A DNA stretch of 34,932 nt, taken from the sequence record SRR20825019_1299; one strand, written 5' to 3'. A program made the position numbers and the translations under genes. The notes under the pieces are model-generated. The model searched no databases. It was given only the letters and a program-made list of their open reading frames with translations, and was not told the DNA's origin. The stretch's first letter is position 1; each line of letters opens with the position of its first letter. Shown piece after piece: positions 8,191-28,315 of this stretch.

Positions 8191-9966
8191 TTAATAATTA
8201 GTTTGGTCACTGAGCGAAGTAGTGTTAATTAAGCTTAAACCACCTTCAATTAAATGCGCCACTTTTGGTCTTTGTTGCTTCAAATTTAAAAGATGATTTA
8301 AAACTTCTTCAGAAAATTCTGAAGTTGTATTTGCAACCAGCTCATATATTTCTAATGAAAGTAACCAATCGGTAGCATGGTTTTCTTTTAAATTTTCAAA
8401 GATTTGTTGAAGCTTGGTCGCATCTATTTCATTAGAATTACGAATCTCTCTTACTTTTTTATAAAATGAATTCAGCGCTTTTTCTTTTTCTGAAAGTTGC
8501 ACACGAATTGTTTCACTGCTTGAAACGTGATTTACCAAATTAAACGAATGGTAATCTGCTGCTCCCGCAAAAGCTGAAGCAATTTCTTTACCTACAGCCA
8601 TATCAAAATTGCCCATTTCAGGAGAAAATAACACTTCATTTTTGTAGGTTACCGTACAATCCGTAAACTGAATAAGCATCAATTCGCCACGAAGGTTTCG
8701 TATTCCTGTAACGTTTAGTCCTTCTACTGTTATTCCGCTTTCAAACTCAAATGCAATAGGTTTTCCATCGTAAAAATTATACGCTTGCAAATCCCGTGGC
8801 CCCATATTTTCAATAGCAAGATTAATGCCTTTCAATTTCCCCAAAGGAGAACGAAATCCATTTTTATGACGACTTACGCCATGGCCAATCACTTCTTTTT
8901 CGCGGTATGAAAGTGCCGTTTCCCCTTCCGTTTCAAAGTAAACTACTTCGTTGTCCTCATTTTTTATCATTCGTGAAAAACGACCGCTTATTTGTAGTCC
9001 GGTACTAATTTCAATAGTGCCAAGTTGTTTCGATTTTATAAGTTTTTTTAAGCCACGCCAACCACCTTTTCGCACAGCCATAGTGTTTGCAAATTCTTCT
9101 AAAACTTCTTGTAAGTATGCAAAATCTGGCGTTATATAAAGCTGTGGCTGTGGTTTTGTTATATCAAAATCTTGGTAAGCAGCATCGATGGAATAAGGAA
9201 TTTTTTTCACTTCATCTTTCATACACCAAACACTTTCACCGATGGAAGAAAGTAAGCCTGCGCCATAAATTTTTGGGTTTTCTACCGTGCCAACCATTCC
9301 GTATTCTACAGTCCACCAATGTAAATTTCGAATTAAAGAAATTTCTGAAGGCTTTACTTTTTTGTTTTGAAGCTCTTCAACTCTAGTTTCAGCTGCGTGT
9401 ATTAATTCATCCGAAATACCTTCAGCTTCCTTTAAAATAGAGAGTTCACGAACGGCTTCATACATATCCATATCGTGGGCGCTGGAAATAGCTTTTGCAC
9501 CAACCTCCCCAAAACGACGTAAATATTCTGCGTAATCTGGGCTGGCAATAATAGGAGCATGGCCTGCGCCTTCGTGAATAATATCTGGTGCTGGCGTATA
9601 TTCTATATTTTCAAGTTGACGAATATCGCTAGCAATAACAAGCACTTTATACGCCTGAAATTCCATAAAAGCATTCGGCGGAATGAATCCATCAACCGCA
9701 ACTGCAGCCCAACCAATTTCCTTTAAAATTCGGTTCATGCCATACATTGAAGGAATTTCATCTATTGAAATACCTGTTTTTTTAAGTCCGCCCAAATAAC
9801 TTTCGTGTGCAACTTTACTCAAATAATCCACGTTTTTTCGCATTACATAACGCCAAACAGCCTGATTTATGGGTGTATATTGCTCATAATCCTGTGGTTT
9901 TATGTACTGTTTTAAATGTGGGGGCAAGCGGTCCAACAATTCGTTGGTTTCAATATTCATTTCCAT
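8191..9966 (-). CDS. phhA: Aromatic amino acid (phenylalanine-4-) hydroxylase, long form with C-terminal extension
   Basis: YTPAPDIIHEGAGHAP (two Fe-binding His), WWTVEYG (Fe-binding Glu), YGAGLLSS; 591 aa. Confidence 0.88.
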   Translation of the reverse strand: MEMNIETNELLDRLPPHLKQYIKPQDYEQYTPINQAVWRYVMRKNVDYLSKVAHESYLGGLKKTGISIDEIPSMYGMNRILKEIGWAAVAVDGFIPPNAFMEFQAYKVLVIASDIRQLENIEYTPAPDIIHEGAGHAPIIASPDYAEYLRRFGEVGAKAISSAHDMDMYEAVRELSILKEAEGISDELIHAAETRVEELQNKKVKPSEISLIRNLHWWTVEYGMVGTVENPKIYGAGLLSSIGESVWCMKDEVKKIPYSIDAAYQDFDITKPQPQLYITPDFAYLQEVLEEFANTMAVRKGGWRGLKKLIKSKQLGTIEISTGLQISGRFSRMIKNEDNEVVYFETEGETALSYREKEVIGHGVSRHKNGFRSPLGKLKGINLAIENMGPRDLQAYNFYDGKPIAFEFESGITVEGLNVTGIRNLRGELMLIQFTDCTVTYKNEVLFSPEMGNFDMAVGKEIASAFAGAADYHSFNLVNHVSSSETIRVQLSEKEKALNSFYKKVREIRNSNEIDATKLQQIFENLKENHATDWLLSLEIYELVANTTSEFSEEVLNHLLNLKQQRPKVAHLIEGGLSLINTTSLSDQTNY

Positions 9967-9970
9967 AGTT

Positions 9971-9978
9971 CAAAAGTA
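9971..9978 (-). promoter_or_regulatory. Bacteroidota -7 promoter element for phhA
   Basis: Minus strand reads TACTTTTG (TAnnTTTG), 4 nt before the ATG at 9966; no clear -33 box. Confidence 0.5.
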
Positions 9979-10056
9979 ATGAGTAATTGTTTATTATGTA
10001 TGACAATACTAAAAAAGTGCTAAGAGTTTTTGTAGAATTCCTATCTTGCGTTATCA

Positions 10057-10626
10057 ATGAAAAACAGTACCCGAAAAGAAGAAATAATAACCGTTGCCTC
10101 CCGCCTTTTTAATGAAAAAGGCTTTAAAGCTGTTTCAATGCGAGACATCGCCACGGCAATGAATATAAAGGCCGCCAGTCTTTATAACCACATTAGTGGA
10201 AAGCAACAAATACTTTCTGAAATCATTCTTGAAGTTGCAAAAGCTTTTACTGTTGGAATGGAAAAAGTATGCGTGAAAAATATTTCTGCCATCGAAAAAA
10301 TAGAAATGGTTATTGAAATGCATATTGCAATTACAGTAAATCATTCCGAGGCTCTCGCCGCTTTAAACAACGATTGGATGCATTTAGAAGGCGCAGATTT
10401 AAATGCTGTTGTTAAAATGCGGGAAGATTACGAGGAAAATTTCCGAAATATTATAAAACAAGGCATACATGCTGGAGAAATAAGCCCGAATCATCCTGAA
10501 GTTGTACTTTTTTCAATTCTTTCTACCTTGAGAACACTTTATTTATGGAATCAGAAAAGGGGAAAACTAGACGTGAATATTCTTAAAAAAGATATGGTTT
10601 CTGTGCTTATTAAAGGAATTGTGTAA
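10057..10626 (+). CDS. TetR/AcrR family regulator, probably PaaR-like
   Basis: N-terminal HTH (EKGFKAVSMRDIATAMNIKAASLYNH); directly upstream of paaE. Confidence 0.88.
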   Translation: MKNSTRKEEIITVASRLFNEKGFKAVSMRDIATAMNIKAASLYNHISGKQQILSEIILEVAKAFTVGMEKVCVKNISAIEKIEMVIEMHIAITVNHSEALAALNNDWMHLEGADLNAVVKMREDYEENFRNIIKQGIHAGEISPNHPEVVLFSILSTLRTLYLWNQKRGKLDVNILKKDMVSVLIKGIV

Positions 10627-10653
10627 GAAACCTTCAAAGTGCGACAATAATAA

Positions 10654-10685
10654 TTTGCTATTCTAACTAACAAGCGTTAGTTTTG
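10654..10685 (+). promoter_or_regulatory. paa operon promoter with overlapping palindromic operator
   Basis: TTTG (10654-10657), 20-nt spacer, TAGTTTTG (10678-10685). Perfect inverted repeat AACTAAC-AAGC-GTTAGTT (10665-10682) overlaps the -7 box. Confidence 0.75.
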
Positions 10686-10709
10686 TTAACCTAATTTTAT
10701 AAAATAAAC

Positions 10710-11783
10710 GTGGCGAAGTTTCATAAATTAAAAATAAAGGACGTTTACAAAGAGACGGATGATTGTTCGGTTATCACTTTTGACGTGCCGAAAAATCTGG
10801 CTGAAGAATTTCAATTCCGCCAAGGGCAACATTTAACATTAAAAGCAGATATAGACGGCAATGACACGCGTCGCTCCTATAGTTTGTGTTCCAGCCCAAC
10901 TGATAATGAATGGAAAGTTGCGGTAAAGACAATTCCCGAAGGAAAATTTTCAAATTTTGTAAATTCAGAATTGAAAATTAACGACACTTTGGAAGTGATG
11001 GTGCCTAGCGGAACATTTGGGGTGGATGTAAACCCTACTGCATCAAAAAACTATCTTTTTTTTGCTGCAGGAAGCGGAATTACTCCCGTGCTTTCTATGA
11101 TTAAAACACATTTGGCACTAGAGCCTAATGCAACCTGCAAGTTGTTTTATGTGAATAGAACCGCAAAATCCATTATCTTTAAAGAAGCTTTGGAACAGTT
11201 GCGAAATGAATATTTCGGACGCCTTGAAATTTATTATTTTCTAACGAAGGAACGACGCGATATTGAACTTTTCAACGGTCGTTTTGATGATGAAAAGATG
11301 CAAGTTTTAACGAAGAATTTCATAGATATTCCTGATACCAGCGAAGTGTTTTTATGTGGCCCCGAAGAAATGGTAAATTATGTAAGCAATTACTTAATTG
11401 AAGCTGGACTTCCGAAGAAAATGATTCATTTTGAATTATTTGTAACAGGTTTAACCGAAGAAGATAAACAGCGTGCCGAGCGTTTAGCGAAACAAAATGT
11501 AGCTGGCGTTGAAGTAACAATTGTTGATGCGGGGAAAGAGTTCCAGTTTACAATGACCAAGGATTATGATAATATTCTTGATGCGGCATTGGCTGCGGGT
11601 GCAGATTTGCCTTTCGCATGCAAGGGCGGTGTTTGTAGCACTTGCAAATGTGAAGTTTTAGAAGGCAGCGTAGAGATGAAAATAAATTATGCTTTAGAAG
11701 AAAAAGAAGTGGCGCAAAACTTTGTGTTAAGTTGCCAAGCCGTTCCAACTTCAGAAAAAGTAAAAGTAGATTTTGATGTATAA
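10710..11783 (+). CDS. paaE: Phenylacetyl-CoA epoxidase reductase subunit (FAD/NAD(P)H/2Fe-2S)
   Basis: RRSYSLCS FAD motif, AAGSGITP, LCGP, C-terminal ferredoxin ACKGGVCSTCKC..LSCQ; GTG start. Confidence 0.93.
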   Translation: MAKFHKLKIKDVYKETDDCSVITFDVPKNLAEEFQFRQGQHLTLKADIDGNDTRRSYSLCSSPTDNEWKVAVKTIPEGKFSNFVNSELKINDTLEVMVPSGTFGVDVNPTASKNYLFFAAGSGITPVLSMIKTHLALEPNATCKLFYVNRTAKSIIFKEALEQLRNEYFGRLEIYYFLTKERRDIELFNGRFDDEKMQVLTKNFIDIPDTSEVFLCGPEEMVNYVSNYLIEAGLPKKMIHFELFVTGLTEEDKQRAERLAKQNVAGVEVTIVDAGKEFQFTMTKDYDNILDAALAAGADLPFACKGGVCSTCKCEVLEGSVEMKINYALEEKEVAQNFVLSCQAVPTSEKVKVDFDV

Positions 11784-11784
11784 T

Positions 11785-11819
11785 AGCTTTAAGCTTTAAG
11801 CTTACAGCCTTAAGCTAAT
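11785..11819. repeat. Heptamer tandem array, paaE/paaA junction
   Basis: AGCTTTA AGCTTTA AGCTTAC AGCCTTA AGCTAAT fills almost the whole spacer. Confidence 0.85.
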
Positions 11820-11822
11820 AGT

Positions 11823-12779
11823 ATGAATGAAAAGGAAATAAAGAATTTAGAGGAAATTTTTGAAGCTCGCATAGCGCGTGATGAAAAAATAGAGCCGAAA
11901 GATTGGATGCCAGAAAAATACCGACAAACGCATATTCGGCAAATGAGCCAACACGCACATTCCGAAATTATTGGGATGCTTCCTGAAGGAAACTGGATTA
12001 CTCGAGCGCCTTCTTTACGAAGAAAAGCGGCATTGCTTGCGAAAGTTCAGGATGAAGCTGGCCACGGTCTTTACTTGTATTCAGCTTGTGAAACTTTAGG
12101 GATTTCTAGAGATGAATTGTATGAACAACTACATAGTGGAAAGGCAAAATACTCTTCAATTTTCAATTACCCCACCATCACTTGGGCAGATATGGGCGCG
12201 ATAGGTTGGTTGGTAGATGGTGCAGCAATTATAAATCAGGTACCGCTTTGTAATACTTCATTCGGACCTTATGCACGTGCAATGGTGCGAGTTTGTAAGG
12301 AAGAAAGTTTTCACCAGCGCCAAGGTTTCGAAATTATGCTAACCCTTTGTCGTGGCACTGAAGAGCAAAAAGCAATGGCGCAAGATGCGCTTAATCGTTG
12401 GTGGTGGCCAAGTTTAATGATGTTGGGACCAACTGATGCGGAATCCATTCACACCGAACAATCGATGAAATGGAAGTTGAAACGAAAAAGTAACGACGAA
12501 TTACGTCAGCAATTTATAGATCAAACTGTGCCACAAGCAGATCTTTTAGGGATTACAGTTCCAGATCCAGATTTGAAATGGAATGAAGAAACAGGTCATT
12601 ATGATTTTGGTGCAATAAACTGGGATGAATTTTGGCAAGTGGTAAAAGGCCATGGTCCTTGTAATAAAGAGCGAATGAAAGCGAGAGTTGATGCATGGGA
12701 AAATGGAGAATGGGTTCGCGATGCGGCTATGGCATACGCAGAAAAAAATACAACTAAAAAAGTAGCAAAAGCAAGTTAA
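11823..12779 (+). CDS. paaA: 1,2-phenylacetyl-CoA epoxidase subunit A
   Basis: [18 protein letters not shown], di-iron motifs QDEAGHG and KEESFH. Confidence 0.97.
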
Positions 12780-12780
12780 A

Positions 12781-12844
12781 TAGACGTAAAGCGTGAGATT
12801 TAATACGTGAATAAAGTGTCTAAAATCTAAAATCTAATGTCTGA
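12781..12844. repeat. Empty inverted heptamer array pair, paaA/paaB junction
   Basis: Left TAGACGT AAAGCGT GAGATTT AATACGT; right TGTCTAA AATCTAA AATCTAA TGTCTGA (reverse complement TTAGACA/TTAGATT). paaB ATG lies in the right arm. Confidence 0.7.
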
Positions 12845-13130
12845 TAATAAAAAAAACTGGCCCCTTTGGGAAATATTTGTCCGCAGTAAAAATGGATTAG
12901 AGCATCGTCATTTTGGTAGCCTTCATGCAACCGATGCAGAAATGGCAATGGAAAATGCGCGCGATGTTTACACACGTAGAAACGAAGGTGTGAGTATTTG
13001 GGTGGTGGAAAGTAAAAATATTACCGCTTCAAATCCACAAGATAATGGTGAAATGTTTGAGCCTGCACAAGATAAAGTATACCGTCACCCCACTTTTTAT
13101 GATTTACCAGACGAGGTGAAGCATATGTAA
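12837..13130 (+). CDS. paaB: 1,2-phenylacetyl-CoA epoxidase subunit B
   Basis: WPLWEIFVRS..GSLHA..ARDVYTRRNEGVSIWVV..YRHPTFY. Confidence 0.97.
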   Translation: MSDNKKNWPLWEIFVRSKNGLEHRHFGSLHATDAEMAMENARDVYTRRNEGVSIWVVESKNITASNPQDNGEMFEPAQDKVYRHPTFYDLPDEVKHM

Positions 13131-13142
13131 GTTGAAAGGGGG

Positions 13143-13579
13143 TTAGGAAATAGGTATTTGGAATTTGTGATTATGAATAGTAAATATCATTTTAAGTTTG
13201 AAGATTTAAATGTCTACCAAAAAGCGATAGATTTTGGAGAATTAATTCATGCTCAAGTTTTAAAATTCCCTCAATACGAATTGTATGCGCTAACTTCTCA
13301 ATTTAGAAGAGCAGCAGATTCAATTGCTTTAAATATTTCCGAAGGATATCCTGGAAGCGACCCTCAATTCATTAAACATATTAATTATGCTATATATAGT
13401 TCTAACGAGTGTGTTTCTTGTAGTACAAAAGCAAAAAGAAGAAGTTATATTTCTAATGAAGAAGATGAAGAAAATAGAAAGTGTTTATCAGAACTAACAA
13501 AAATGCTTTCATCTTTAAGAAATAAAATTAAAGAACGAACTAATGCCTAATCCCACAATACCTAATGCCTTATTACAAA
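13143..13579 (+). mobile_element. Putative cassette 1: four-helix-bundle gene between inverted heptamer arrays
   Basis: Left arm TTAGGAA ATAGGTA TTTGGAA TTTGTGA TTATGAA (13143-13177); right arm TGCCTAA TCCCACAA TACCTAA TGCCTTA TTACAAA (13544-13579). Mobility is inferred. Confidence 0.6.
13173..13550 (+). CDS. Four helix bundle protein (23S rRNA intervening-sequence protein / Avd-like family)
   Basis: FEDLNVYQKA..FPQYELYALTSQFRRAADSIALNISEG..F...A..S..E signature. ATG 13173 preferred over TTG 13158, which only translates the repeat arm. Confidence 0.9.
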   Translation: MNSKYHFKFEDLNVYQKAIDFGELIHAQVLKFPQYELYALTSQFRRAADSIALNISEGYPGSDPQFIKHINYAIYSSNECVSCSTKAKRRSYISNEEDEENRKCLSELTKMLSSLRNKIKERTNA

Positions 13580-14334
13580 TGAAAAATCAAAATTTATACA
13601 ATTACATCCTTACAATTGCAGACAATTCTTTGATTCTTGCACAACGATTAGGTGAGCTTTGTGGGCACGGACCTAATTTGGAAACCGATATAGCACTTAC
13701 TAATATTTCGTTAGATTTATTAGGGCAAACAAGAAGCTACTACCAATATGCTGCAAAAATTTCCGAAGAAAATAAAACAGAAGACGATATTGCTTTCCTA
13801 AGAATTGAAAGAGAATATAAAAATTGCCTGCTTGTTGAACAACCAAATACCCATTTTGGATATGTAATTGGAAGACAGTTTTTGTTCGATGTTTATCATT
13901 TGTTGCTAATGGAAAAATTGCAAGATAGTAAAGATGAAATTCTAACTTCAATAGCCAAAAAAGGAATTAAGGAAGTAAGTTATCACAAACGATTTTCTGG
14001 TGATTGGGTGAAGCGTTTAGGAGATGGAACTGAGGAAAGCAACCAAAAAATGCAAGAAGCAATCAATGACCTTTGGCGATTTACGGATGAACTTTTTTAT
14101 ATCACAGAAGCTGAAAAAACAATGATTGAAGAAGGTATTGGTATTGATATTTCAGCCTTTAAAGAAAAATATTACGCCGAAGTTTCTGAGTTGTTAGAAG
14201 AAGCAACACTTACTGTTCCTGAAAATAAATATTTTACAAAAGGCGGGAAAGAAGGAATTCACAGCGAACATATGGGCTATCTACTCGCAGAATTGCAATA
14301 TATGCAACGTACGTACCCGAATATGACTTGGTAG
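13579..14334 (+). CDS. paaC: 1,2-phenylacetyl-CoA epoxidase subunit C
   Basis: ADNSLILAQRL.E.CGHGP.LE.DIA, KEVSYH, G.HSEHMGYLLAELQYMQR.YP..W. Start moved to ATG 13579 because the upstream 12 codons are repeat arm. Confidence 0.95.
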   Translation: MKNQNLYNYILTIADNSLILAQRLGELCGHGPNLETDIALTNISLDLLGQTRSYYQYAAKISEENKTEDDIAFLRIEREYKNCLLVEQPNTHFGYVIGRQFLFDVYHLLLMEKLQDSKDEILTSIAKKGIKEVSYHKRFSGDWVKRLGDGTEESNQKMQEAINDLWRFTDELFYITEAEKTMIEEGIGIDISAFKEKYYAEVSELLEEATLTVPENKYFTKGGKEGIHSEHMGYLLAELQYMQRTYPNMTW

Positions 14335-14787
14335 TCAATTCTCAACTAACAATTTTCAATTCTAAAAAAATAATTATGGAAAGGAATTTTGATTTAGAAG
14401 ATAGACTTATAGATTTTGCAATTATTTGTATAAAGTTATTTGCAAAAGTTGAATACAATTATGCTTTAGACCATTTGTCAAAAACAACTAATAAAGTCTT
14501 CAACTGGAACCGCTTTAAATTATGGAGAAGTACAAGGAGCGGAGTCTGCTAAAGATTTTATTTAAAATGGGCATTGTACTTAAAGAGTTAAAAGAGTCCA
14601 AAGTAAATTTGAAAATTCAAATTGGAACCGAAATATTAAAAGATATAGAGAAGGCTCAATTTGGTTTAAAAGAATGTGAAGAATTAGTGGCGATTTTCGC
14701 TAAAAGTATAAAAACTGCAAAAGCAAAAAAATAATTAAGCATTGAATATTGTTAGTTGAAAATTGAGCCTTGAAAATTGAATATTTA
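14335..14787 (+). mobile_element. Putative cassette 2: four-helix-bundle pseudogene between inverted heptamer arrays
   Basis: Left TCAATTC TCAACTA ACAATTT TCAATTC (14335-14362) matches the reverse complement of GCATTGA ATATTGT TAGTTGA AAATTGA (14739-14766) at 25/28; the right arm continues to about 14787. Mobility is inferred. Confidence 0.65.
14376..14734 (+). pseudogene. Four helix bundle protein gene with two frameshifts
   Basis: Joined translation MERNFDLEDRLIDFA..DHLSK / QLIKSSTGTALNYGEVQGAESAKDFI / KMGIVLKELKESKVNLKI..EELVAIFAKSIKTAK; shifts at the A-run 14480-14484 and at about 14563. Confidence 0.88.
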
Positions 14788-15270
14788 AATATCGAAAGTC
14801 ATTTAATTGAAACATTATCATCCGTTTCTGATCCGGAAATTCCTGTGCTTTCAGTTTTAGATTTGGGTGTTATTCGTGAAGCAGTTGAGGAAAATGGTAT
14901 TGTGAACATAAAGTTGACGCCAACCTATTCTGGCTGCCCAGCAATGGATGTAATTGGAGATGATTTAAGAACGGCTTTTTTAGAAATTGGTAAAGAAGCA
15001 AAGGTTGAGTTAATCCTTTCACCAGCTTGGTCCACAGATTGGATTAGTGAAGAAGGGCTCCTAAAGATGGAGGAATATGGCATTGCCAGACCACTATCAG
15101 AACTTCACGATAAAGATGTTTTGTTAGGAGATAAAAAACACGTAAAATGTCCGCAATGCGGAAGTACAAATACCCATTTAGTTAGTCAATTTGGTTCTAC
15201 TGCATGCAAAGCACTTTTTAAATGTGACGATTGCCTAGAGCCGTTTGATTATTTTAAATGTTTGAAATAA
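14770..15270 (+). CDS. paaD: 1,2-phenylacetyl-CoA epoxidase subunit D
   Basis: V.DPEIPVLSV.DLG, TPTYSGCPA, WSTDWI, CPQCGS..FGSTACKALFKCDDC.EPFDYFK. TTG start lies in the repeat arm and is uncertain. Confidence 0.93.
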   Translation: MKIEYLNIESHLIETLSSVSDPEIPVLSVLDLGVIREAVEENGIVNIKLTPTYSGCPAMDVIGDDLRTAFLEIGKEAKVELILSPAWSTDWISEEGLLKMEEYGIARPLSELHDKDVLLGDKKHVKCPQCGSTNTHLVSQFGSTACKALFKCDDCLEPFDYFKCLK

Positions 15271-15355
15271 AATGAATAATGAATAATGAAAAATGAAAAA
15301 TGAAAAAGCTTATTAAAAAACTTCATCATTTAGTTCTTCAGGTTCAATATTAAAT
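15271..15355. repeat. Empty inverted heptamer array pair, paaD/paaG junction
   Basis: Left AATGAAT x2 then AATGAAA x3 (15271-15305), starting right after the paaD stop; degenerate right arm CTTCATC ATTTAGT TCTTCAG GTTCAAT ATTAAAT (15321-15355). Confidence 0.8.
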
Positions 15356-15361
15356 AATATT

Positions 15362-16144
15362 ATGAGTAAAAGCATAACTACCCTTATAGAAAACAAAGTA
15401 GCAACTTTAACCTTAAACCGGCCAGAGGTTTTTAATAGTTTCAACCGTGAAATGGCGTTGTTACTACAAACCGAATTGGACGCTGCTGAAAAAAATCCAG
15501 ATGTTCGCGCAATTATAATTACAGGAAATGGAAAAGCATTTTGTGCAGGACAGGATTTAAAAGAAGTTACATCGCCTGAATTGAACCCTGGTTTCAAAAA
15601 AATTCTGGAGGAACATTACAATCCAATTATTTCCCGTATTCGAAATATTGAAAAACCGATAATTGGAGCAATTAATGGTGTAGCAGCTGGAGCTGGTGCA
15701 AATATTGCTTTGGCGTGCGATGTAGTTATTGCTTCTGAAAACGCAAGTTTTATTCAAGCTTTTAGTAAAATTGGCTTGGTTCCGGACAGTGCAGGCACAT
15801 TCTTTTTGCCCCGTTTAATTGGTTTTCAAAAAGCATCAGCTTTAATGATGTTGGGCGATAAAGTTTCTGCCGAACAGGCGGAAAAACTTGGGATGGTTTA
15901 TAAAGTAGTTTCTTTAGAAAACTTTATTGAAGAAGTAAACAATATAGCTTTAATAATGGCAAATATGCCTACCAAAGCATTGGGATTAACCAAACGTTTG
16001 CTAAATAATTCAATGCAAAATTCTTTGGAAGAACAACTAAATATGGAGAGCAAACTTCAAATAGAAGCTGCCCAAAGTGAAGATTATGCAGAAGGAGTTG
16101 ATGCATTTGTGAGCAAACGAAAGCCAAATTTTAAAGGAAAATAA
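15362..16144 (+). CDS. paaG: 2-(1,2-epoxy-1,2-dihydrophenyl)acetyl-CoA isomerase (crotonase family)
   Basis: AFCAGQDL, GVAAGAGANIALACD, QAFSKIGLVPDSAG with the PaaG-type catalytic Asp; operon context. Confidence 0.9.
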   Translation: MSKSITTLIENKVATLTLNRPEVFNSFNREMALLLQTELDAAEKNPDVRAIIITGNGKAFCAGQDLKEVTSPELNPGFKKILEEHYNPIISRIRNIEKPIIGAINGVAAGAGANIALACDVVIASENASFIQAFSKIGLVPDSAGTFFLPRLIGFQKASALMMLGDKVSAEQAEKLGMVYKVVSLENFIEEVNNIALIMANMPTKALGLTKRLLNNSMQNSLEEQLNMESKLQIEAAQSEDYAEGVDAFVSKRKPNFKGK

Positions 16145-16232
16145 TTGACACCTTGCTTATAGAAAACAATGAATTATGTTTAATTTTTGTTGCGAGTATT
16201 AAAACTTCAACAAAAAAATAATATTTAATAAT

Positions 16233-17438
16233 TTGGAAAATCAAAAATCAGAAATTGGTAATCAACAATCGTTAATCAAGTTTGTTGGAATTATAGGAAG
16301 CGGAACAATGGGAAGTGGTATTGCGCAAGTAGCCGCCACTGCTGGGTGTTCTGTGAAATTATACGATACAAATGATGAAGCTTTAGAAAAAGCTAAAGCA
16401 GCTTTGGAAAAAATAATGAGTCGTTTGGTGGAGAAGGGAAAAATTGATTCCAAAGAAAAAGAACGAATTCAGGGTAATATTAAATATGTAAACTCTCTTA
16501 AAGATTTAAAAGATTCAGATTTAACAATTGAAGCAATTGTTGAAAATTTAGCTGTTAAAAAGAATGTTTTTTCAACCTTAGAAAAATTTGTTTCCGAGAA
16601 ATGTATCATTGCTTCAAACACATCTTCATTGTCAATCGCATCAATTGCTTCGTCACTTGAAAAACCAGAGCGTTGCGTTGGGATTCACTTTTTTAATCCA
16701 GCGCCTCTAATGAAGTTGGTGGAGGTAATTCCCGCAATACAAACTTCCGAAGAAACACTTCAAAAATCTGTAGAAACTATAAAAAATTGGGAAAAAACGG
16801 TTGCCGTTGCTAAGGACACCCCAGGTTTTATTGTAAATCGGGTAGCGCGTCCATTTTATGGTGAGGCCTTGCGTATTTATGAAGAAGGAATTGCCGATTT
16901 TGCAACTATTGATGATGCAATGAAAGAAATTGGTAATTTTAGAATGGGCCCCTTTGAGTTAATGGATTTTATAGGAAATGATGTTAATTATACCGTGACC
17001 GAAACCGTTTTTGAGGCATTTTATTACGATCCGCGATACAAGCCTTCCTTTACCCAAAAACGTTTTTCCGAAGCGGGTTACTTAGGAAGAAAATCTGGCC
17101 GTGGCTATTATAATTATTCCGAAAATGCAGAAAAAAAGCAAGCTGTTATAAACGATGGATTAAATGTTGAAGTTGAGGTTTTTGATAGAATATTAGTAAT
17201 GCTAATCAATGAGGCTGCTGATGCACTTTTTTGGAATATAGCTTCTGCGGAAGATATTGATAATGCAATGACCAAAGGTGTTAATTACCCAAAAGGTTTG
17301 TTAGCTTGGGCAAATGAAAAAGGTATCGATTGGTGTGTAAATAAAATGGATGAATTATACGCTACTTATCATGAAGATAGATATCGTTGTTCTCCGTTAC
17401 TTCGGAAAATGAACCTTGAAAACAAAACATTCTTTTAA
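16233..17438 (+). CDS. paaH: 3-hydroxyacyl(adipyl)-CoA dehydrogenase
   Basis: GIIGSGTMGSGIA Rossmann motif, SNTSSLSI, GIHFFNP, duplicated C-terminal domain; TTG start uncertain. Confidence 0.9.
   Translation: MENQKSEIGNQQSLIKFVGIIGSGTMGSGIAQVAATAGCSVKLYDTNDEALEKAKAALEKIMSRLVEKGKIDSKEKERIQGNIKYVNSLKDLKDSDLTIEAIVENLAVKKNVFSTLEKFVSEKCIIASNTSSLSIASIASSLEKPERCVGIHFFNPAPLMKLVEVIPAIQTSEETLQKSVETIKNWEKTVAVAKDTPGFIVNRVARPFYGEALRIYEEGIADFATIDDAMKEIGNFRMGPFELMDFIGNDVNYTVTETVFEAFYYDPRYKPSFTQKRFSEAGYLGRKSGRGYYNYSENAEKKQAVINDGLNVEVEVFDRILVMLINEAADALFWNIASAEDIDNAMTKGVNYPKGLLAWANEKGIDWCVNKMDELYATYHEDRYRCSPLLRKMNLENKTFF
16239..16280. repeat. Heptamer array inside the paaH 5' end
   Basis: AATCAAA AATCAGA AATTGGT AATCAAC AATCGTT AATCAAG. 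Confidence 0.8.
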
Positions 17439-17845
17439 TGCTAAATTCTAAAAAAATACCTGTAAAAATGCTAAGTCAAGACGCTTTTAGTTCTTGGCTC
17501 GGGATAGAGATTTTAGAAGTAGAAAAAGGTAGATGTAAAGTTGCAATGACTATACGGAAAGAGATGCTTAACAGTATGAATAAAGCCCACGGCGGCATTA
17601 GTTATAGTTTAGCAGATACCGCTTTCGGTTTTGCTGCAAATACCCACGGAAAATACGCAGTGTCCATAGAAACGTCAATAAATCATATTGAAGCACTTAA
17701 TGAAGGCGATTATCTTACAGCGGAATCGGTTATTGAAAAAGTAAATAATAAACTCGGTTTTAATATTGTTGAAGTAAAACGTGGAACTGAATTAGTTGCA
17801 CTTTTTAAAGGTGTAGTTTATAGAACAAGTAGGGATTGGGAATAA
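17438..17845 (+). CDS. paaI: PaaI family hotdog-fold thioesterase
   Basis: MLN....AHGGISYSLADTAFG motif; coupled to paaH by TAATG overlap. Confidence 0.9.
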   Translation: MLNSKKIPVKMLSQDAFSSWLGIEILEVEKGRCKVAMTIRKEMLNSMNKAHGGISYSLADTAFGFAANTHGKYAVSIETSINHIEALNEGDYLTAESVIEKVNNKLGFNIVEVKRGTELVALFKGVVYRTSRDWE

Positions 17846-17928
17846 TAGAATAGACTATGTTTTTAAAACTAAAAAAATCAAATTTAAAACTTAATTTTAA
17901 TCATCAATAATCTAAAAATATTCAAATT

Positions 17929-18789
17929 ATGAAATGGCAAGGTAGAAGACAAAGTGGTAATGTTGATGATCGACGTGGAATGAGTAAAGGTAAGATGGCT
18001 GCTGGTGGCGGAATAGCAGTAACGTTAATTGTGCTTGCCTTACAGTTTTTTGGAGGTGAAACTGGACAGCAACTAGCTCCAATTGTTGAGCAAATTGGAA
18101 ATAGCCGAACAACACAACAGGTAGAACAAAGAGAACTTACCGCTCAAGAAAAGGAGGTTGGAAACTTTGTAGCTACTGTTTTAGCAGATACAGAAGATGT
18201 TTGGGCGCAAATTTTCAGTCAAAATAATATCGGAACATACCAAGAGCCAACAATGGTTTTATTTACAGATGCTGTAAGTTCAGGCTGTGGAAATGCTAGC
18301 TCAGCTTCTGGACCGTTTTATTGTCCTGCCGATCAGAACCTGTATATGGATCTGACATTTTTTGATGAATTAAAAACTCGTTTCGGCGCTAAAGGTGGAG
18401 ATTTCGCAATTGCTTATGTAACCGCTCATGAAATTGGACATCACGTACAAACACTACTCGGAACATCCAAAAAAGTATCGCAGCTTCAGCGACAAACTAC
18501 TAAAGTAGAAGCTAATAAGCTTTCTGTTGCGTTAGAGTTACAAGCTGATTTTTATGCGGGACTTTGGGCACATTATAACCAAGAATATTTAGAAGAAGGA
18601 GATATTGAAGAAGCGCTGAGTGCAGCAAATGCAGTAGGTGATGACGCAATTCAAAAAAGAATGCAGGGCGATATTGTACCCGATAGTTTTACACATGGAA
18701 GCTCAGAACAGCGTATGAAATGGTTTATGAAAGGCTATAAAACTGGAGATATAAAACAGGGAGATACCTTTTCAGAAATATTAAATTAA
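17929..18789 (+). CDS. Neutral zinc metallopeptidase (YpfJ-like)
   Basis: MKWQGRRQS.NV.DRR, TM helix, GPFYCPAD, AHEIGHH (HExxH), ELQAD, FTHGSS.QR. Confidence 0.9.
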   Translation: MKWQGRRQSGNVDDRRGMSKGKMAAGGGIAVTLIVLALQFFGGETGQQLAPIVEQIGNSRTTQQVEQRELTAQEKEVGNFVATVLADTEDVWAQIFSQNNIGTYQEPTMVLFTDAVSSGCGNASSASGPFYCPADQNLYMDLTFFDELKTRFGAKGGDFAIAYVTAHEIGHHVQTLLGTSKKVSQLQRQTTKVEANKLSVALELQADFYAGLWAHYNQEYLEEGDIEEALSAANAVGDDAIQKRMQGDIVPDSFTHGSSEQRMKWFMKGYKTGDIKQGDTFSEILN

Positions 18790-18794
18790 ATAGG

Positions 18795-18861
18795 AACGAT
18801 TGAAGAATATCCAATTTATAAGTATGAATTTTTAATTTTATTTCAACAATCGTTAATCAAA
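18795..18861. repeat. Degenerate empty inverted heptamer pair upstream of paaJ
   Basis: Left AACGATT GAAGAAT; right TTTCAAC AATCGTT AATCAAA. AACGATTG (18795-18802) is the exact reverse complement of CAATCGTT (18847-18854). Confidence 0.6.
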
Positions 18862-18870
18862 AAAATCTTT

Positions 18871-20073
18871 ATGGAAGCATATATAATTGACGGAATTAGA
18901 ACTCCAATAGGAAGTTATCAAGGCACACTTAGTGCAGTTCGCACGGACGATTTGGCTGCTCTAGTTATTGCCGAAATAGTAAAAAGAAATCCAACAATTC
19001 CAAAAGAAGCTTATGACGATGTGATTTTGGGATGCGCCAATCAAGCGGGTGAAGATAACAGAAATGTTGCTCGAATGGCAGCATTGTTAGCAGGCTTACC
19101 TGTAAATGTTCCTGGTGAAACAGTAAACAGACTTTGCAGCAGCGGACTTTCAGCAATAATCCATGCAAATAGAGCTATAAAAGCGGGTGATGGCGATATT
19201 TTTATTTCTGGCGGTGTTGAAAACATGACACGCGGTCCATACGTAATTGCAAAACCTTCAAAAGCTTTTGGAACAGATTCTAAAATGTATGATTCTAGCT
19301 TTGGGTGGCGATTCATTAATACAAAAATGGCTGAAATGTATGGCACGGATGGCATGGGAAATACCGCTGAAAACCTAGTTGAAAAACACAACATCAATCG
19401 GGAAGACCAAGATGTCTTTGCATATAATAGTCAGCGGAAAGCTGCGGATGCTCAAAAAAGTGGGCGTTTAGCAAAAGAAATCGTTTCCGTTGAAATTCCA
19501 CAGCGCAAAAAAGATTCAATTATTTTTAAGGATGATGAATTTATTCGCCCCGAAACCACCAAAGAAATTTTAGCAAAATTACGTCCAGCTTTTAAAAAAG
19601 ATGGAAGTGTTACCGCCGGAAATTCTTCAGGATTAAACGATGGTGCTGCAGCTACGATTATCGCTTCTGAAGCTGCTGTGAAAAAATATAATTTAAAACC
19701 AATTGCACGAATTGTAAGCTCTGCAGTTGTTGGTGTAGAACCTCGAATTATGGGTATTGGTCCTGTGGAAGCTTCAAATAAAGCACTTAAAAAAGCAGGT
19801 TTAAAAATGGAGGATATGGATATCATTGAGCTTAATGAAGCTTTTGCTTCACAAGCATTGGCGTGTATCCGCGAATGGGGATTGAAAGATGACGACCCAC
19901 GCATAAATCCAAATGGGGGTTCAATCGCTATTGGCCATCCGCTGGGTGTTACGGGAGCACGCATCGCTTATTCCGCAGCATTAGAGCTTCAACTGCAAAA
20001 TAAACGTTACGCATTAATAACCATGTGTATTGGAGTTGGCCAAGGATATGCTGCTATAATTGAACGTGTATAA
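18871..20073 (+). CDS. paaJ: 3-oxoadipyl-CoA / 3-oxo-5,6-dehydrosuberyl-CoA thiolase (PaaJ/PcaF)
   Basis: GCANQAGEDNRNVARM, NRLCSSG, NEAFA, GHPLG, CIGVGQG. Confidence 0.92.
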   Translation: MEAYIIDGIRTPIGSYQGTLSAVRTDDLAALVIAEIVKRNPTIPKEAYDDVILGCANQAGEDNRNVARMAALLAGLPVNVPGETVNRLCSSGLSAIIHANRAIKAGDGDIFISGGVENMTRGPYVIAKPSKAFGTDSKMYDSSFGWRFINTKMAEMYGTDGMGNTAENLVEKHNINREDQDVFAYNSQRKAADAQKSGRLAKEIVSVEIPQRKKDSIIFKDDEFIRPETTKEILAKLRPAFKKDGSVTAGNSSGLNDGAAATIIASEAAVKKYNLKPIARIVSSAVVGVEPRIMGIGPVEASNKALKKAGLKMEDMDIIELNEAFASQALACIREWGLKDDDPRINPNGGSIAIGHPLGVTGARIAYSAALELQLQNKRYALITMCIGVGQGYAAIIERV

Positions 20074-20174
20074 ATTTTTAAACACAATAAGATGAGGTAT
20101 TTAAAATGGGTTATTCGTTAATAGATATTTAATATATGTATTTTTAAATTATATTTACAAAAAATAAATATATA

Positions 20175-20420
20175 ATGGCAACATTCACTTCTTCTTTACC
20201 CGATAAACTATTAAATGATTTAGCAAAAGTAGCTACCGAGCTTCAATTGCCAAAGAATAAAATAATTGAAAAAGCTTTAAAAATATATTTAGAACAATTG
20301 GATCGTGCTGCATATCTTAAATCCTATAAAGAAATGGCTGAAGATGTAGATATGTTAGTTTTGGCTGAAGAAGGAATGGCAGATTATTTCAAAACAATTA
20401 GCGAGGACGAGATGTTATGA
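20175..20420 (+). CDS. Ribbon-helix-helix (CopG-like) antitoxin
   Basis: 81 aa with strand-helix-helix N-terminus and acidic tail LAEEGMADY; ATGA overlap with the toxin. Confidence 0.8.
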   Translation: MATFTSSLPDKLLNDLAKVATELQLPKNKIIEKALKIYLEQLDRAAYLKSYKEMAEDVDMLVLAEEGMADYFKTISEDEML

Positions 20421-20749
20421 AGCAAGGCGAAATTTATGAAGTTTACCTCGACCCTATAAAAGGAAGTGAACAAGGCGGAAGAAGGCCAGCTGTAATCATT
20501 TCTGGGAATTTAGCAAACGAAAACCTTAATACGGTGATTATTTGCCCAATGACATCCAAACTAAAAAATTACCATGGAAATTTAATTGTCCAACCCAATA
20601 ATATAAATGGTCTAAAAAATACTTCTGAAGTAATGACCATACACATTTGTTCCATATCAAAAGAGCGATTACAGTCAAAATGTGGAATGTTAGACAAGAC
20701 GGAATTTAATCTGGTAATTGAAAGCTTACAGAAAATAATTAAATATTAA
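20417..20749 (+). CDS. mazF: PemK/MazF family type II toxin (endoribonuclease)
   Basis: GEIYEVYLDP.KGSEQGGRRPAVIIS..N..VIICPMTS..ISKERL. Confidence 0.9.
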   Translation: MKQGEIYEVYLDPIKGSEQGGRRPAVIISGNLANENLNTVIICPMTSKLKNYHGNLIVQPNNINGLKNTSEVMTIHICSISKERLQSKCGMLDKTEFNLVIESLQKIIKY

Positions 20750-20760
20750 AATAGATTTAC

Positions 20761-23292
20761 GTGCAAAAAACACAACATTATATACTAGGAAACTGGGCAG
20801 AAGGTAAAGGTGAAGGCTCGCCAATACTAGATTCTGTAACTGGTGAACATTTTACAAGTGTAACTACTGAAGGGCTTGATGTTCCTGAAATTTTGCAATA
20901 CGGACGCGACAAAGGAGAAGTGCTTCGGAAAATGACCTTTCAAGAACGTGGTTTGATGCTAAAAAAACTTGCAATGTATCTTACCAAAAAGAAACAGCAA
21001 TTTTACGAAATCAGTTACCGAACTGGTGCCACAAAAATTGACAGTTGGATTGATATTGAAGGCGGATTTGGAAATTTATTTGCCAACGCTTCGCTTCGAA
21101 AATTATTTCCAAACCAATCATTTCATGTGGAAGGTGATCCTATAGACCTTTCTCGTGGCGGACGTTTTATGGCGCACCACATTATGGTTCCGCGCGAAGG
21201 TGTGGCGGTTCATATCAACGCTTTTAACTTTCCAGTTTGGGGAATGTTAGAAAAATGTGCAGTAAACTGGATGGCAGGAATGCCAGCAGTTGTTTTGCCT
21301 GCACCACAAACAGCTTATTTAGCTGAAGCCGTTGTAAAAGAAATTATTGCTTCAGGAATTCTCCCTGAAGGTTCATTACAGCTTATCAGTGGAACAGCAA
21401 AAACTATTTTAGATACCGTAGAATCTCAAGATGTGGTTACCTTTACAGGTTCTGCAAGCACTGGAAGAATTCTAAAAAAACACCCTCAGTTGATTGAAGA
21501 ATCGGTTCCTTTTACAATGGAAGCAGATAGCCTTAACGCATCCATTTTAGGTGAAGATGCCGTTCCAGGAACTCCAGAATTTGATCTTTTTATTAAAGAA
21601 GTTCGAAATGAAATGACCGTGAAATGCGGACAAAAATGTACAGCGATTAGAAGAATCATCGTTCCAGAAAAATTGATAGAAGATGTGCAAATCGCACTTG
21701 GAAAACAATTGGATAGAGTTACAATTGGTGACCCACGCTTAAAAGAGGTTAGAATGGGGGCATTGGTAAACGATGCTCAACGCAATTCCGTAAAAGAACA
21801 GATTTCAAAAATAACGCAAACTGCAGAAATTGTGTACGGCAATTATGAAGACTTTGAAGTAAGTGGAGCCGACTCCAAAAAGGGCGCTTTTATAAAACCA
21901 ATGCTACTTCGCGAAAACAATCCGTTGCAAAATGAAGCTGCACACATAACCGAAGCATTTGGACCTGTAAGCACGTTAATGCCTTATAAAAATTTGGAAG
22001 AAGCAATCAAGCTTTCAAAAATGGGGAAGGGTTCTTTGGTTAGTTCCATTGTTACCAACGATAATAAAATTGCAAAGGAGTATACTATTTCCTCAGCAAC
22101 ACATCATGGGCGTATTTTAGTGCTAAATCGTGAAAGCGCCAAACAAAGTACAGGGCACGGATCGCCATTGCCTAATCTTATTCACGGCGGTCCAGGACGT
22201 GCTGGTGGTGGTGAAGAAATGGGTGGAGTTCGTGGCGTAAAACATTATTTGCAACGTTGCGCTATTCAAGGCTCGCCTTCTACATTAACCGAAATTACAG
22301 GGATTTATCAGCCAAAAGCAGATTATAAAGAATCCGAAAACCACCCATTTGCATATCATTGGGAAGACATTGAGCCGGGAATGTCAATAAAAACACATAA
22401 GCGTACCATTACCGATACAGATATTATCAATTTTGCAAATCTTACTTGGGATCATTTTTATGCGCATACAGATATTACTTCATTAGATGGAAGTATTTTT
22501 GAAAAACGTACCGCACATGGGTATTTTATACTTGCCGCCGCCGCAGGTTTATTTGTGTATCCAAACAAAGGCCCAGTTGCTGCCAATTACGGCCTTGAGG
22601 AATGTAGATTTCTTCGCCCAATTTATCACAATGATACTGTTTATGTGCGTTTAACGTGTAAACAAAAAATTGACCGTGAGCAAAAAGGTACCGAACTACC
22701 TTCAGGAATTGTGAAATGGTATGTGGAAGTTTTTGATGCGAATATTGATGAAAGTTCTTCGGAAGAAGAAAAGCAAGGCGAATTGCTTGCTATTGCTACC
22801 ATTTTAACAATGGTGCAAAAAAAGCAGACTGTTTTTGCTGAAATGACTTCAGAGTCGATTTCGAAATATTTGAACAATCTTTCAGAAAATTCAAAACCAA
22901 AATGGGGAACAATGCAACCGCAGCAAATGCTAGAGCATTTAGAATATACCTACCGAATTGCTTCTGGAGAAATTCAGGATTTCGAGATTGCAACTCCTGA
23001 AAAATATTTGATAGAAACACATTCAACACTTTATAATTATAGAAAAATGCCAAAAGAATACGATTTTCCTTTGGCGGAAGAATCAAAAATAAGGGAAACA
23101 AAACACTCAGATTTGGAAACAGCAAAATTAAAAATGCTGGAAGCACGAGCTGATTATTTAAAATATTTCAAACAAAATCCAGATGCAAAAACCAAAAATG
23201 TAGTGTTTGGTGAATTGAATAAATTTGAATGGTACTTATTGGAACGAAAGCATTTGAATCACCATTTTGAACAATTTAATTTAATAGACTAA
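20761..23292 (+). CDS. paaZ: Bifunctional oxepin-CoA hydrolase / aldehyde dehydrogenase with extra C-terminal DinB-like domain
   Basis: ALDH (HINAFNFPVWG, MEADSLN, GQKCTAIRR, EAFGPV), MaoC hotdog (DHFYAH, AHG, ANYG) and a ~150-aa tail; GTG start. Confidence 0.95.
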   Translation: MQKTQHYILGNWAEGKGEGSPILDSVTGEHFTSVTTEGLDVPEILQYGRDKGEVLRKMTFQERGLMLKKLAMYLTKKKQQFYEISYRTGATKIDSWIDIEGGFGNLFANASLRKLFPNQSFHVEGDPIDLSRGGRFMAHHIMVPREGVAVHINAFNFPVWGMLEKCAVNWMAGMPAVVLPAPQTAYLAEAVVKEIIASGILPEGSLQLISGTAKTILDTVESQDVVTFTGSASTGRILKKHPQLIEESVPFTMEADSLNASILGEDAVPGTPEFDLFIKEVRNEMTVKCGQKCTAIRRIIVPEKLIEDVQIALGKQLDRVTIGDPRLKEVRMGALVNDAQRNSVKEQISKITQTAEIVYGNYEDFEVSGADSKKGAFIKPMLLRENNPLQNEAAHITEAFGPVSTLMPYKNLEEAIKLSKMGKGSLVSSIVTNDNKIAKEYTISSATHHGRILVLNRESAKQSTGHGSPLPNLIHGGPGRAGGGEEMGGVRGVKHYLQRCAIQGSPSTLTEITGIYQPKADYKESENHPFAYHWEDIEPGMSIKTHKRTITDTDIINFANLTWDHFYAHTDITSLDGSIFEKRTAHGYFILAAAAGLFVYPNKGPVAANYGLEECRFLRPIYHNDTVYVRLTCKQKIDREQKGTELPSGIVKWYVEVFDANIDESSSEEEKQGELLAIATILTMVQKKQTVFAEMTSESISKYLNNLSENSKPKWGTMQPQQMLEHLEYTYRIASGEIQDFEIATPEKYLIETHSTLYNYRKMPKEYDFPLAEESKIRETKHSDLETAKLKMLEARADYLKYFKQNPDAKTKNVVFGELNKFEWYLLERKHLNHHFEQFNLID

Positions 23293-23294
23293 TT

Positions 23295-23351
23295 GAGCCA
23301 AGAACCAAAAATAACGACAGAAAAATCGTGATACTTAGTTCTTGATTCTTG
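23295..23351. repeat. Empty inverted heptamer pair downstream of paaZ
   Basis: Left GAGCCAA GAACCAA AAATAAC; right AATCGTG ATACTTA GTTCTTG ATTCTTG (reverse complement CAAGAAT CAAGAAC). Confidence 0.7.
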
Positions 23352-23362
23352 AATCAAAATTT

Positions 23363-24115: not shown

Positions 24116-24117
24116 TA

Positions 24118-24185: not shown

Positions 24186-24194
24186 AATAAATAA

Positions 24195-28295: not shown

Positions 28296-28315
28296 TTTTG
28301 CGTATCTTCGAACTG

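Follow-up and report, generated by a model that had tools for sequence, protein, structure and literature searches.

The closest described relatives of the element considered here are the intervening sequences (IVSs) of bacterial 23S rRNA genes. An IVS that carries an open reading frame (ORF) was reportedly described in Leptospira by Ralph and McClelland in 1993. In Coxiella burnetii, according to the accessible text of PMC4990558, the IVS is 428 nt long and has a 28-bp terminal stem; three tandem GACAGAT heptamers, the number of which varies among strains, lie just before the ATG of the S23p gene, RNase III cuts the stem at the first repeat in vitro (the ends were mapped), and the authors argue that the ORF is decaying. 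The S23p or four-helix-bundle (4HB) family to which such proteins belong is very large and has been without a known role since 1993, apart from Avd, the accessory variability determinant of diversity-generating retroelements (DGRs). Here we describe a 4HB gene that separates paaB from paaC in the phenylacetate (paa) operon of sequence record SRR20825019_1299 (34,932 nt; this whole stretch is 'the window'). With a probability of roughly three in four, we read positions 13131-13578 of the window as an inserted IVS-type cassette, that is, a promoterless 4HB gene located between inverted repeat arrays, carried by the host transcript and predicted to form a stem of the RNase III type.

Tandem heptamers and 4HB genes also have separate histories outside rRNA. 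The STRR repeats of cyanobacteria are intergenic tandem heptamer arrays. Intergenic arrays of the heptamer TAACTGA are described in Beggiatoaceae, Cyanobacteria and Bacteroidetes, with one Aequorivita genome named in the accessible part of the article (PMC4679880), and 23S_rRNA_IVP genes found inside cas operons are read as having a possible cas-associated function in the portion of PMC3936711 available to us. In the full-text literature (most subscription journals lie outside it), we found neither a report in which 4HB genes are connected with paired inverted tandem arrays nor an account of 4HB genes as operon-junction cassettes.

A first-pass annotation, made from the letters of the window, had described an intact cassette at 13143-13579, with a passenger gene expressed from the host transcript. 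Its observation is mostly right and the results support its interpretation as essentially right; the kinship of the cassette with the architecture of the classical 23S rRNA IVSs is absent from it.

The 4HB gene and its boundaries

The cassette and its two host genes are as follows; L numbers designate the loci compared with the window.

12837-13130, + strand: paaB, upstream host gene (PF06243 PaaB, E 4.8e-44)
13131-13172, + strand: left spacer and arm (aligns with the left arms of L001, L015, L010 and L067)
13173-13550, + strand: intact 4HB gene of the 23S_rRNA_IVP/S23p family, 125 aa (Pfam, NCBIfam, predicted fold)
13541-13578, + strand: right arm, CTAATSC-type units at about 13541-13571 plus a 7-nt tail (aligns with orthologues)
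13579-14334, + strand: paaC, downstream host gene (PF05138, E 9e-92)

The 125-aa gene proposed by the first-pass annotation is confirmed as an ORF that starts with the ATG at 13173 and stops with the TAA at 13548-13550. A search with profile hidden Markov models (HMMs), which that annotation had suggested as a check, places the protein above the curated cut-offs of both relevant models: PF05635 23S_rRNA_IVP (E 1.3e-25, 90.1 bits, cut-off 33.8) and TIGR02436 'four helix bundle protein' (1e-25, 90.1 bits, cut-off 24). By sequence, the protein matches PDB entries 2GSC (E 7.9e-10) and 2RLD, each of which contains five chains. An AlphaFold2 model built from 48 relatives contains four long helices with a pLDDT of 95.6; it superposes on 2GSC, 2RLD and Avd (4DWL) with TM-scores of 0.88/0.93, 0.75/0.83 and 0.78/0.90, respectively. 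In 48 sequences, L40, Q43, R46, N54, E57 and E79 are the invariant family residues, and the window protein has all of them; its Q43, R46, N54 and E57 fall in the motif Q/G-x-x-R...S...N-x-x-E of 23S_rRNA_IVP proteins as it is quoted in the accessible part of PMC3936711. The family comprises 42,682 representatives at the 50% cluster level with E <= 1e-3 and 16,363 with E <= 1e-10. The ratio of nonsynonymous (dN) to synonymous (dS) substitution for the window gene against its orthologues is 0.05-0.07.

The edges of the cassette adjoin the host genes closely. The TAA of paaB (13128-13130) directly borders the cassette, and the 3' end of paaB, ...CATATGTAA, is kept across all loci compared. The paaC ATG at 13579, as first proposed, is set by homologues, the N-terminus of the relatives being MKNQNLYN; an in-frame ATG further upstream (13543) falls within the 3' end of the 4HB gene. 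The core of the left arm (13143-13172) consists of degenerate heptamer units of the nAWTWGG/TTAGG type, and the right arm reaches back over the stop codon and the final three sense codons of the 4HB ORF and extends as far as the paaC ATG. The arms had been thought to supply both the start and the stop codon of the 4HB gene. For the stop codon this holds: in 5/5 orthologues the CTAATSC units start within the final codons of the ORF, and the right arms of relatives contain 2-5 CTAATCC units. For the start codon it does not: the ATG at 13173 aligns with that of the orthologues, and the left array of the relatives stops upstream of it.

The earlier remark that no promoter or terminator is apparent agrees with a scan of 11800-15400, in which we found zero terminator-like sites on the + strand and 14 promoter-like sites of the sigma-70 type versus 12.3 +/- 2.8 in shuffles (the scan is blind to Bacteroidetes-type promoters). 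Also as remarked earlier, no target-site duplication is visible when cassette 1, as we call the element at paaB-paaC, is compared with the empty junctions of relatives.

Cassettes at operon junctions

We collected 67 loci of relatives from one PaaC scan of genome contigs and located 4HB ORFs, in these loci and in the window, by iterated profile search over all six-frame ORFs. That paaB and paaC are normally adjacent, as had been assumed, is borne out by 10 of the 67 loci, outgroup rows included (L030, L031, L033, L034, L041, L045, L050, L055, L061 and L064), in which the spacer is 0-4 nt and typically reads TAAATG; the spacer is a short hairpin of 25-206 nt in about 32 loci and is 419-596 nt long in 25, a bimodal distribution. 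The long spacers contain a 4HB ORF in 21 of 25 cases, with at least four arm types. Fixation of the 4HB gene at paaB-paaC, which the first-pass annotation had named as grounds for rejecting its reading, is not observed: 10 of the 67 rows are empty there, 21 hold a 4HB gene, one holds a verified GIY-YIG gene and the rest short hairpins. Cassette 1 appears to have filled an ancestral TAAATG stop-start junction and, judged from the sequences compared, is probably not part of phenylacetate catabolism.

Other small elements share this junction. In L008, a GIY-YIG nuclease gene (PF01541, E 7.6e-16; 9619-9954) replaces the 4HB gene and is bracketed by ATTCCCGCGAAGGCGGGAAT-type hairpins; a similar ORF is present in L013 (9572-9847), and spacer ends like those of L008 and L013 also occur in L012 and L024 (compared at the spacer ends only). 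A REP-like hairpin (GTCACCTTGAGCGCAGTCGAAAGG...) is a third kind of small element at paaB-paaC (L003, L005, L022, L049, L051 and L066). Arm-only, gene-less hairpins of about 96 nt or single arrays are found there in other species, and gene-less hairpins of cassette-arm build are kept there in L002, L019, L020, L053 and L057.

The 67 loci and the window contain 74 4HB ORFs, and 74/74 are on the operon strand; 14 are partial or frameshifted. Relative to paaA, none occurs in 523 kb upstream and all 74 in 789 kb downstream. They occupy 9 or more operon junctions, which are listed here with the unit of the arms where one was assigned:

paaA-paaB: 7 4HB ORFs; arm unit GTATTGA
paaB-paaC: 21 4HB ORFs; arm unit TTAGG-like, GAAATC, GAAGTT or TTGAAC
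paaC-paaD: 9 4HB ORFs; arm unit CAATTTT
paaD-ECH1: 1 4HB ORF
ECH1-HCDH: 10 4HB ORFs, plus 1 with an unassigned upstream gene; arm unit GATTGCT
HCDH-paaI: 12 4HB ORFs; arm unit TGAGGTN, GAGCTNT or GTAGG
paaI-thiolase: 1 4HB ORF
Zn-peptidase-thiolase: 4 4HB ORFs
downstream of ECH2 (paaY where the locus reaches that far): 8 4HB ORFs; arm units near paaY are 8-9-mers such as GGACGAAAA

The cassettes share a common plan: a tandem array of 6-9-nt units is followed by a short, often A-rich linker, the ORF and a reverse-complement array. In 41 of 48 full-length cassettes, the best inverted match over 20 nt is higher than the 95th percentile obtained for 375 control gene flanks (median 17 in cassettes versus 12 in control flanks), and the median energy of the arm duplex is -28.7 kcal/mol in cassettes versus -13.9 kcal/mol in controls. 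Tandem Repeats Finder (TRF) detects arrays of period 5-10 in 76 of 98 arms, with a median of 4.6 copies; the period is 7 in 48 of these, 6 in 20, 8 in 7 and 10 in 1. Both arms have a TRF array in 29 of 49 cassettes, with equal periods in 26 of these 29. When two whole cassettes from relatives are folded, the arms are paired in both the minimum-free-energy and the centroid structure (z -2.68 and -4.51; 0/100 shuffles as good in each case). Good arms occur in 17 of the 25 long paaB-paaC spacers; in these 17, the median distance from the paaB stop to the stem is 5 nt, that from the stem to the inferred paaC start is 6 nt and the arm length is 28 nt.

Some arms depart from this symmetry. The right arms of L018 (about 9916-9990) and L028 (about 3251-3300) are expanded to about 10 units, versus about 5 to 7 on the left (in L018, 4.7 versus 10.5 copies); copy number changes separately in the left and right arrays of a single cassette. 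In L052 (9555-10000), the left arm is of the GAAATC type and the right arm of the AACTTC type, that is, the complement of GAAGTT units, so recombination between cassette types is suggested.

The protein tree has two deep superclades of 30 rows each, in which the inner clades track arm type and junction. The window belongs to a clade of 8 rows (SH-aLRT 99); five, the window, L001, L015, L010 and L067, are at paaB-paaC, and the others are at HCDH-paaI (L039, L054) and paaD-ECH1 (L024) with related nAWTWGG arms. For 845 pairs of cassettes at different junctions, the 6-mer similarity of the arms is correlated with protein identity (Spearman 0.24; equalled in 0/1000 permutations), and the rise in arm similarity is confined mainly to protein identities above 70%.

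Turnover at a single junction is fast. The state of paaB-paaC changes at least 27 times on the PaaABCD tree of 67 rows. The near-identical trio L023, L025 and L026 (branches <= 0.012) shows three different states: a GAAATC-like cassette, a 25-nt remnant of a left arm with an 8-nt direct repeat (AATTGAAA) at its ends, and a GAAGTT cassette. The cassette is a unit of gene plus arms that is gained, lost and replaced quickly at many junctions. In two pairs of cassettes with about 96% identity, L001-L015 and L010-L067, dS in the 4HB gene is 0.16 and 0.21, respectively, versus 0.87-1.9 in the flanking paaA-D genes, the synonymous sites of which are saturated; nucleotide identity is mostly 94-98% inside the cassette versus 70-90% in the flanks, and the switch is close to the arms. 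In these pairs, therefore, the cassette arrived at the junction long after the species diverged; the cassettes spread horizontally between species. The window copy differs from its relatives by dS of 1.4-1.9, similar to its own flanks, and is a long-standing resident. Most pairs of two clades have a dN/dS of 0.03-0.15 (0.21 in one pair), so the 4HB protein is maintained by selection.

The window contains further members of this group, which are listed with the remaining operon genes that bracket them:

10710-11783, + strand: paaE-like reductase of the paa operon
11785-11816, + strand: gene-less tandem heptamer array, AGCTTTA in 4.6 copies, in the paaE-paaA spacer (TRF)
11823-12779, + strand: paaA
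14335-14769, + strand: second 4HB cassette, between paaC and paaD (alignment with intact orthologues; HMM match on the 3' half)
14770-15270, + strand: paaD
15269-15361, + strand: gene-less hairpin, AAAATGA in 5.6 copies plus a partial complement, in the paaD-ECH spacer (TRF)

The 4HB ORF of the second cassette is a pseudogene, with a +1 frameshift in the A-run at 14480-14484 and a -2 frameshift between 14572 and 14573. Its arms, of CAATTTT/AAAATTG units, are intact (14335-14363 and about 14738-14767): their duplex energy of -28.3 kcal/mol is reached by 0/1000 shuffles, the fold has a z of -2.30 and TRF reports a period-7 array at 14741-14789. The AGCTTTA array at 11785-11816 belongs to the same repeat phenomenon as the cassettes. 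Further gene-less heptamer arrays or array hairpins are found in the operon spacers at 12819-12837, 18790-18870 and 24116-24194, and all five period-7 TRF arrays of the window are inside the paa operon.

The window has a G+C content of 35.5% and the segment is assigned to Flavobacteriaceae; the top match of PaaC is 89%, in Aequorivita and Flavobacteriales records. The operon is on the + strand from a TetR gene at 10057 to about 24803, in the order paaE-like gene, paaA, paaB, 4HB ORF, paaC, 435-nt gap, paaD and beta-oxidation-like genes. A gene for a Zn_peptidase (PF04228; 17929-18789) is located within it, between paaI and the thiolase gene; this gene is present in the Aequorivita rows (the window, L004 and L011) and missing from L029, L054 and L039. 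A MazE-like (weak RHH_3) and MazF/PemK pair is located at 20175-20749, between the thiolase gene and paaZ; because thiolase directly precedes paaZ in L004, L011, L029, L054 and L039, the pair is another operon insertion. A PADLOC search with the two 4HB types and the MazEF-like pair gave no match, and no Rfam family was found in 10000-25000 of the window at E <= 1. Downstream, the + strand ORFs for an E1 dehydrogenase (26208-28295) and a TPR protein (28151-29935) overlap by 145 nt as listed; the true start of the second is probably further downstream.

Explanations for the cassette

The same layout recurs far from the paa operon. A tblastn search of plasmids identified 26 records, mostly cyanobacterial, with a 4HB gene; we inspected the contexts in 13 of these, plus one rRNA-borne copy. 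In 12 of the 13, the 4HB gene is co-oriented with its annotated neighbors, at sites that include cas6-cas4, cmr2-cmr3, ParA-like-ParB and conjugation clusters. Clear inverted tandem arrays are present at 9 of the 13 (GTCAGGA, GGGAACA, AAGGGAA, GGAGATA and others), and one has a long imperfect inverted repeat. The rRNA-borne copy (L073, on an Azospirillum lipoferum plasmid) is a 4HB ORF inside a 23S rRNA gene (Rfam LSU_rRNA_bacteria, 2529 bits); the protein matches PF05635 with an E-value of 3.9e-33, and the ORF is bracketed by GACAGAG/GACGGAG heptamers and their complement. The paired tandem-repeat arms of 4HB cassettes span three phyla. Because this layout recurs in a 23S rRNA gene of Azospirillum as well as on plasmids of cyanobacteria, we read the paaB-paaC cassette as an IVS-type element located in an mRNA spacer.

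The first-pass annotation had called the gene an inserted passenger rather than a pathway gene, and the strict operon sense, the horizontal spread and the many junctions occupied all agree. The alternative that the PaaABC(D)E oxygenase has the 4HB protein as a genuine accessory, with a gene position that reflects this function, is highly improbable: it would account for the repeated association with paa in one family (74 ORFs in 68 loci), but most loci lack the gene at this junction, the junction is shared by 4HB genes of two deeply divergent superclades with at least four arm types, 9 or more different junctions are used, and a family of this size is also found in unrelated operons and in rRNA.

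If the paaB-paaC cassette is an IVS-type element, the 4HB gene would be transcribed by read-through of the paa transcript, and pairing of the arms in the RNA would give an approximately 28-bp stem with its base a few nt from the upstream stop and the downstream start. By analogy with the Coxiella rRNA IVS, such a stem may be a substrate for RNase III; cleavage would then divide the polycistronic transcript at the cassette and set free or uncover the 4HB message. Fold-search matches of the 4HB protein include the DGR ribonucleoprotein entries 8UBE and 8UB7, the titles of which place Avd together with RNA and the reverse transcriptase of DGRs in one complex. Because of this complex, the five chains in 2GSC and 2RLD and the approximately 4.6 units per arm, we speculate that a 4HB oligomer recognizes the repeat units.

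Several observations weigh against the reading of 13131-13578 as an IVS-type cassette with an RNA stem. Some concern cassette 1 itself. The complementarity of its arms, given earlier as about 21/28, is similar in our local alignment (23 Watson-Crick pairs in 29 aligned positions, score 28), but it is not above chance on its own: the duplex energy of -18.9 kcal/mol is equalled by 347/1000 shuffles and by 254/3447 equally spaced position pairs in the window, and the best 20-nt inverted match, 14, is the same as the 95th percentile of the 375 control flanks. The fold that had been proposed as a check is likewise unremarkable (z -0.71; 22/100 shuffles fold equally well), and TRF finds a tandem array in neither arm. 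A stable arm stem in the window genome is therefore doubtful. Others concern the group. We found no gene for a mobility enzyme in the cassette or elsewhere in the window. The locus counts are non-independent and represent roughly 16-18 insertion lineages by junction and arm type, a number that was judged, not computed. The arrays at 11785-11816 and 12819-12837 of the window are single and unpaired. Among the plasmids, L078 (Pseudanabaena, cas6-cas4) has AAAAGCT/AAAAGCC arrays in direct orientation on both sides, L077 (Calothrix) has its 4HB gene antisense to both neighbors with an array on one side only, and in L081 arrays were not seen around the 4HB gene. Finally, the arm mismatches in 41 cassettes comprise 59 A.C versus 27 G.U and 171 transversions, with no sign of wobble tolerance; this test is confounded by the variable positions inside the repeat units, and the pattern does not support selection on an RNA stem. 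We are cautious about a purely RNA-level reading because of the ratio of A.C to G.U mismatches and because some arrays are direct or unpaired.

The arms of cassette 1 are credible only through their alignment with those of four orthologous cassettes, which carry CATTAGG/CTAATCC units and have strongly paired arms: L010 (-37.5 kcal/mol) and L067 (-41.3 kcal/mol; fold z -2.68, with 0/100 shuffles as good). Cassette 1 is an old resident with an intact ORF and partly decayed arms. Because the arms are decayed, a strong effect of the envisaged stem on paaC is doubtful in the window genome.

The mismatches, together with the direct (L078), one-sided (L077) and solitary (11785-11816) arrays, would fit arms that act as DNA, either as arrays of binding sites or as a single-stranded hairpin or cruciform for a recombinase or transposase acting in trans or for the 4HB protein, much as a transposon uses its terminal inverted repeats, with pairing in the transcript being incidental. 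The complementarity is mostly in the cores of the units and variable positions are often unmirrored, the copy number can be unequal between the arms of one cassette (as in L018), and the cassettes move between junctions and species, all of which would suit this explanation. However, a pure DNA transposon would not alone yield 74/74 sense insertions unless antisense copies were purged, there is no target-site duplication and no transposase in the cassette or the window, and RNase III cleaves the equivalent Coxiella stem in vitro, at ends that were mapped (accessible text of PMC4990558). We consider a DNA role for the arms possible, if somewhat unlikely; it is compatible with the IVS-type reading and does not exclude it.

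A second alternative is that the cassettes and gene-less hairpins are domesticated operon punctuation, that is, RNase III or stability sites that set the ratios of PaaA/B, PaaC and PaaD and are retained for their use to the host, with the 4HB protein as a modulator of processing rather than a selfish passenger. The RNase III sites between the genes of T7 early transcripts are a precedent. The confinement of the five period-7 arrays of the window to the paa operon, the gene-less hairpins kept at paaB-paaC in five loci (L002, L019, L020, L053 and L057), the stem base that adjoins stop and start codons, and the strong purifying selection on the 4HB protein would all be accommodated. Set against these are the many operons that are empty at the junction, the rapid turnover in which one junction holds different cassette types or a GIY-YIG gene, the truncated or frameshifted ORFs (14/74), the horizontal spread, and the occurrence of the same elements in rRNA and in operons of the cas, par and conjugation types. 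This alternative is unlikely.

A broader proposal goes beyond the IVS-type reading of the paaB-paaC cassette, and we offer it as a long shot. The 4HB genes and their inverted arrays could be one very large, unrecognized class of mobile elements that home into transcribed stop-start junctions and rRNA hairpin tips; a pentameric ring might read the units, one per subunit, on the RNA or single-stranded DNA of the element and bring in an enzyme of the host that copies or inserts it, in the manner of Avd and the DGR reverse transcriptase. The rRNA IVSs, the 4HB genes of cas operons and many STRR and TAACTGA arrays would then be faces or footprints of this class. Whatever its merit, the paa locus and its relatives join ORF-bearing rRNA IVSs, scattered operon 4HB genes and tandem heptamer arrays under one architecture, and the comparative evidence for mobility and for selection on the protein makes both the role of the IVS ORF and the movement of IVSs experimentally approachable in marine flavobacteria that are harmless and can be cultured.

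Comparison with known systems

Small mobile elements of other kinds resemble the cassettes in part. Like miniature inverted-repeat transposable elements (MITEs) and insertion sequences (ISs), REP-BIME elements and integron cassettes, they are small, repeat-bounded and intergenic, are gained or lost between close relatives, and have gene-less, arm-only derivatives; they differ in that their orientation is strictly with transcription. An integron cassette was rejected because the repeats are on both sides, not a single 3' attC, and there is no integrase in the window; an IS or MITE was rejected for the lack of a transposase in the cassette or window and of a target-site duplication relative to empty junctions.

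The TAACTGA arrays, like the cassette arms, are runs of at least two heptamers in spacers, oriented with and ending just 5' of a start codon, but the accessible part of PMC4679880 links them neither to 4HB genes nor to an inverted partner array, whereas the paa cassettes have reverse-complement array pairs around a gene. The 4HB genes of cas operons are likewise wedged between co-directional genes, and the copies at cas6-cas4 and cmr2-cmr3 have repeat arms; the results reported here suggest that they are generic operon-junction passengers. As a warning for annotation, a 4HB gene within a cas, par, conjugation or catabolic operon should be taken as a probable passenger and not as a member of the pathway.

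Avd shares the four-helix-bundle fold (TM 0.78/0.90), and some relatives have weak, sub-threshold matches to Pfam bAvd and NCBIfam DivGenRetAVD; the differences are a sequence identity of 7% and a window protein that has no match to the DivGenRetAVD equivalog. A DGR accessory protein was rejected: we found no reverse transcriptase domain among the 36 ORFs scanned, no template/variable repeat pair in the window and no match to an Avd model.

The rRNA IVSs differ from the cassette in four respects: the host site here is the stop-start junction of an operon, not the hairpin tip of 23S rRNA helix 9, 25 or 45; the arms in the window are decayed; RNase III excision, known for Coxiella, would apply here by analogy; and the ORF here is under clear purifying selection, whereas that of Coxiella is argued to be decaying (PMC4990558, accessible text). 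The likenesses are as follows. The distance between the paaB stop and the paaC start is 448 nt, compared with 428-444 nt for rRNA IVSs (the latter from sources available in part); an S23p/PF05635 ORF points in the direction of host transcription; terminal inverted repeats are about 28 nt long (the median in relatives; the pairing in the window itself is not above chance); tandem heptamers of variable copy number precede the ORF (in orthologues; TRF detects none in the window arms); and both kinds of element carry no mobility gene and have a sporadic distribution that suggests horizontal transfer.

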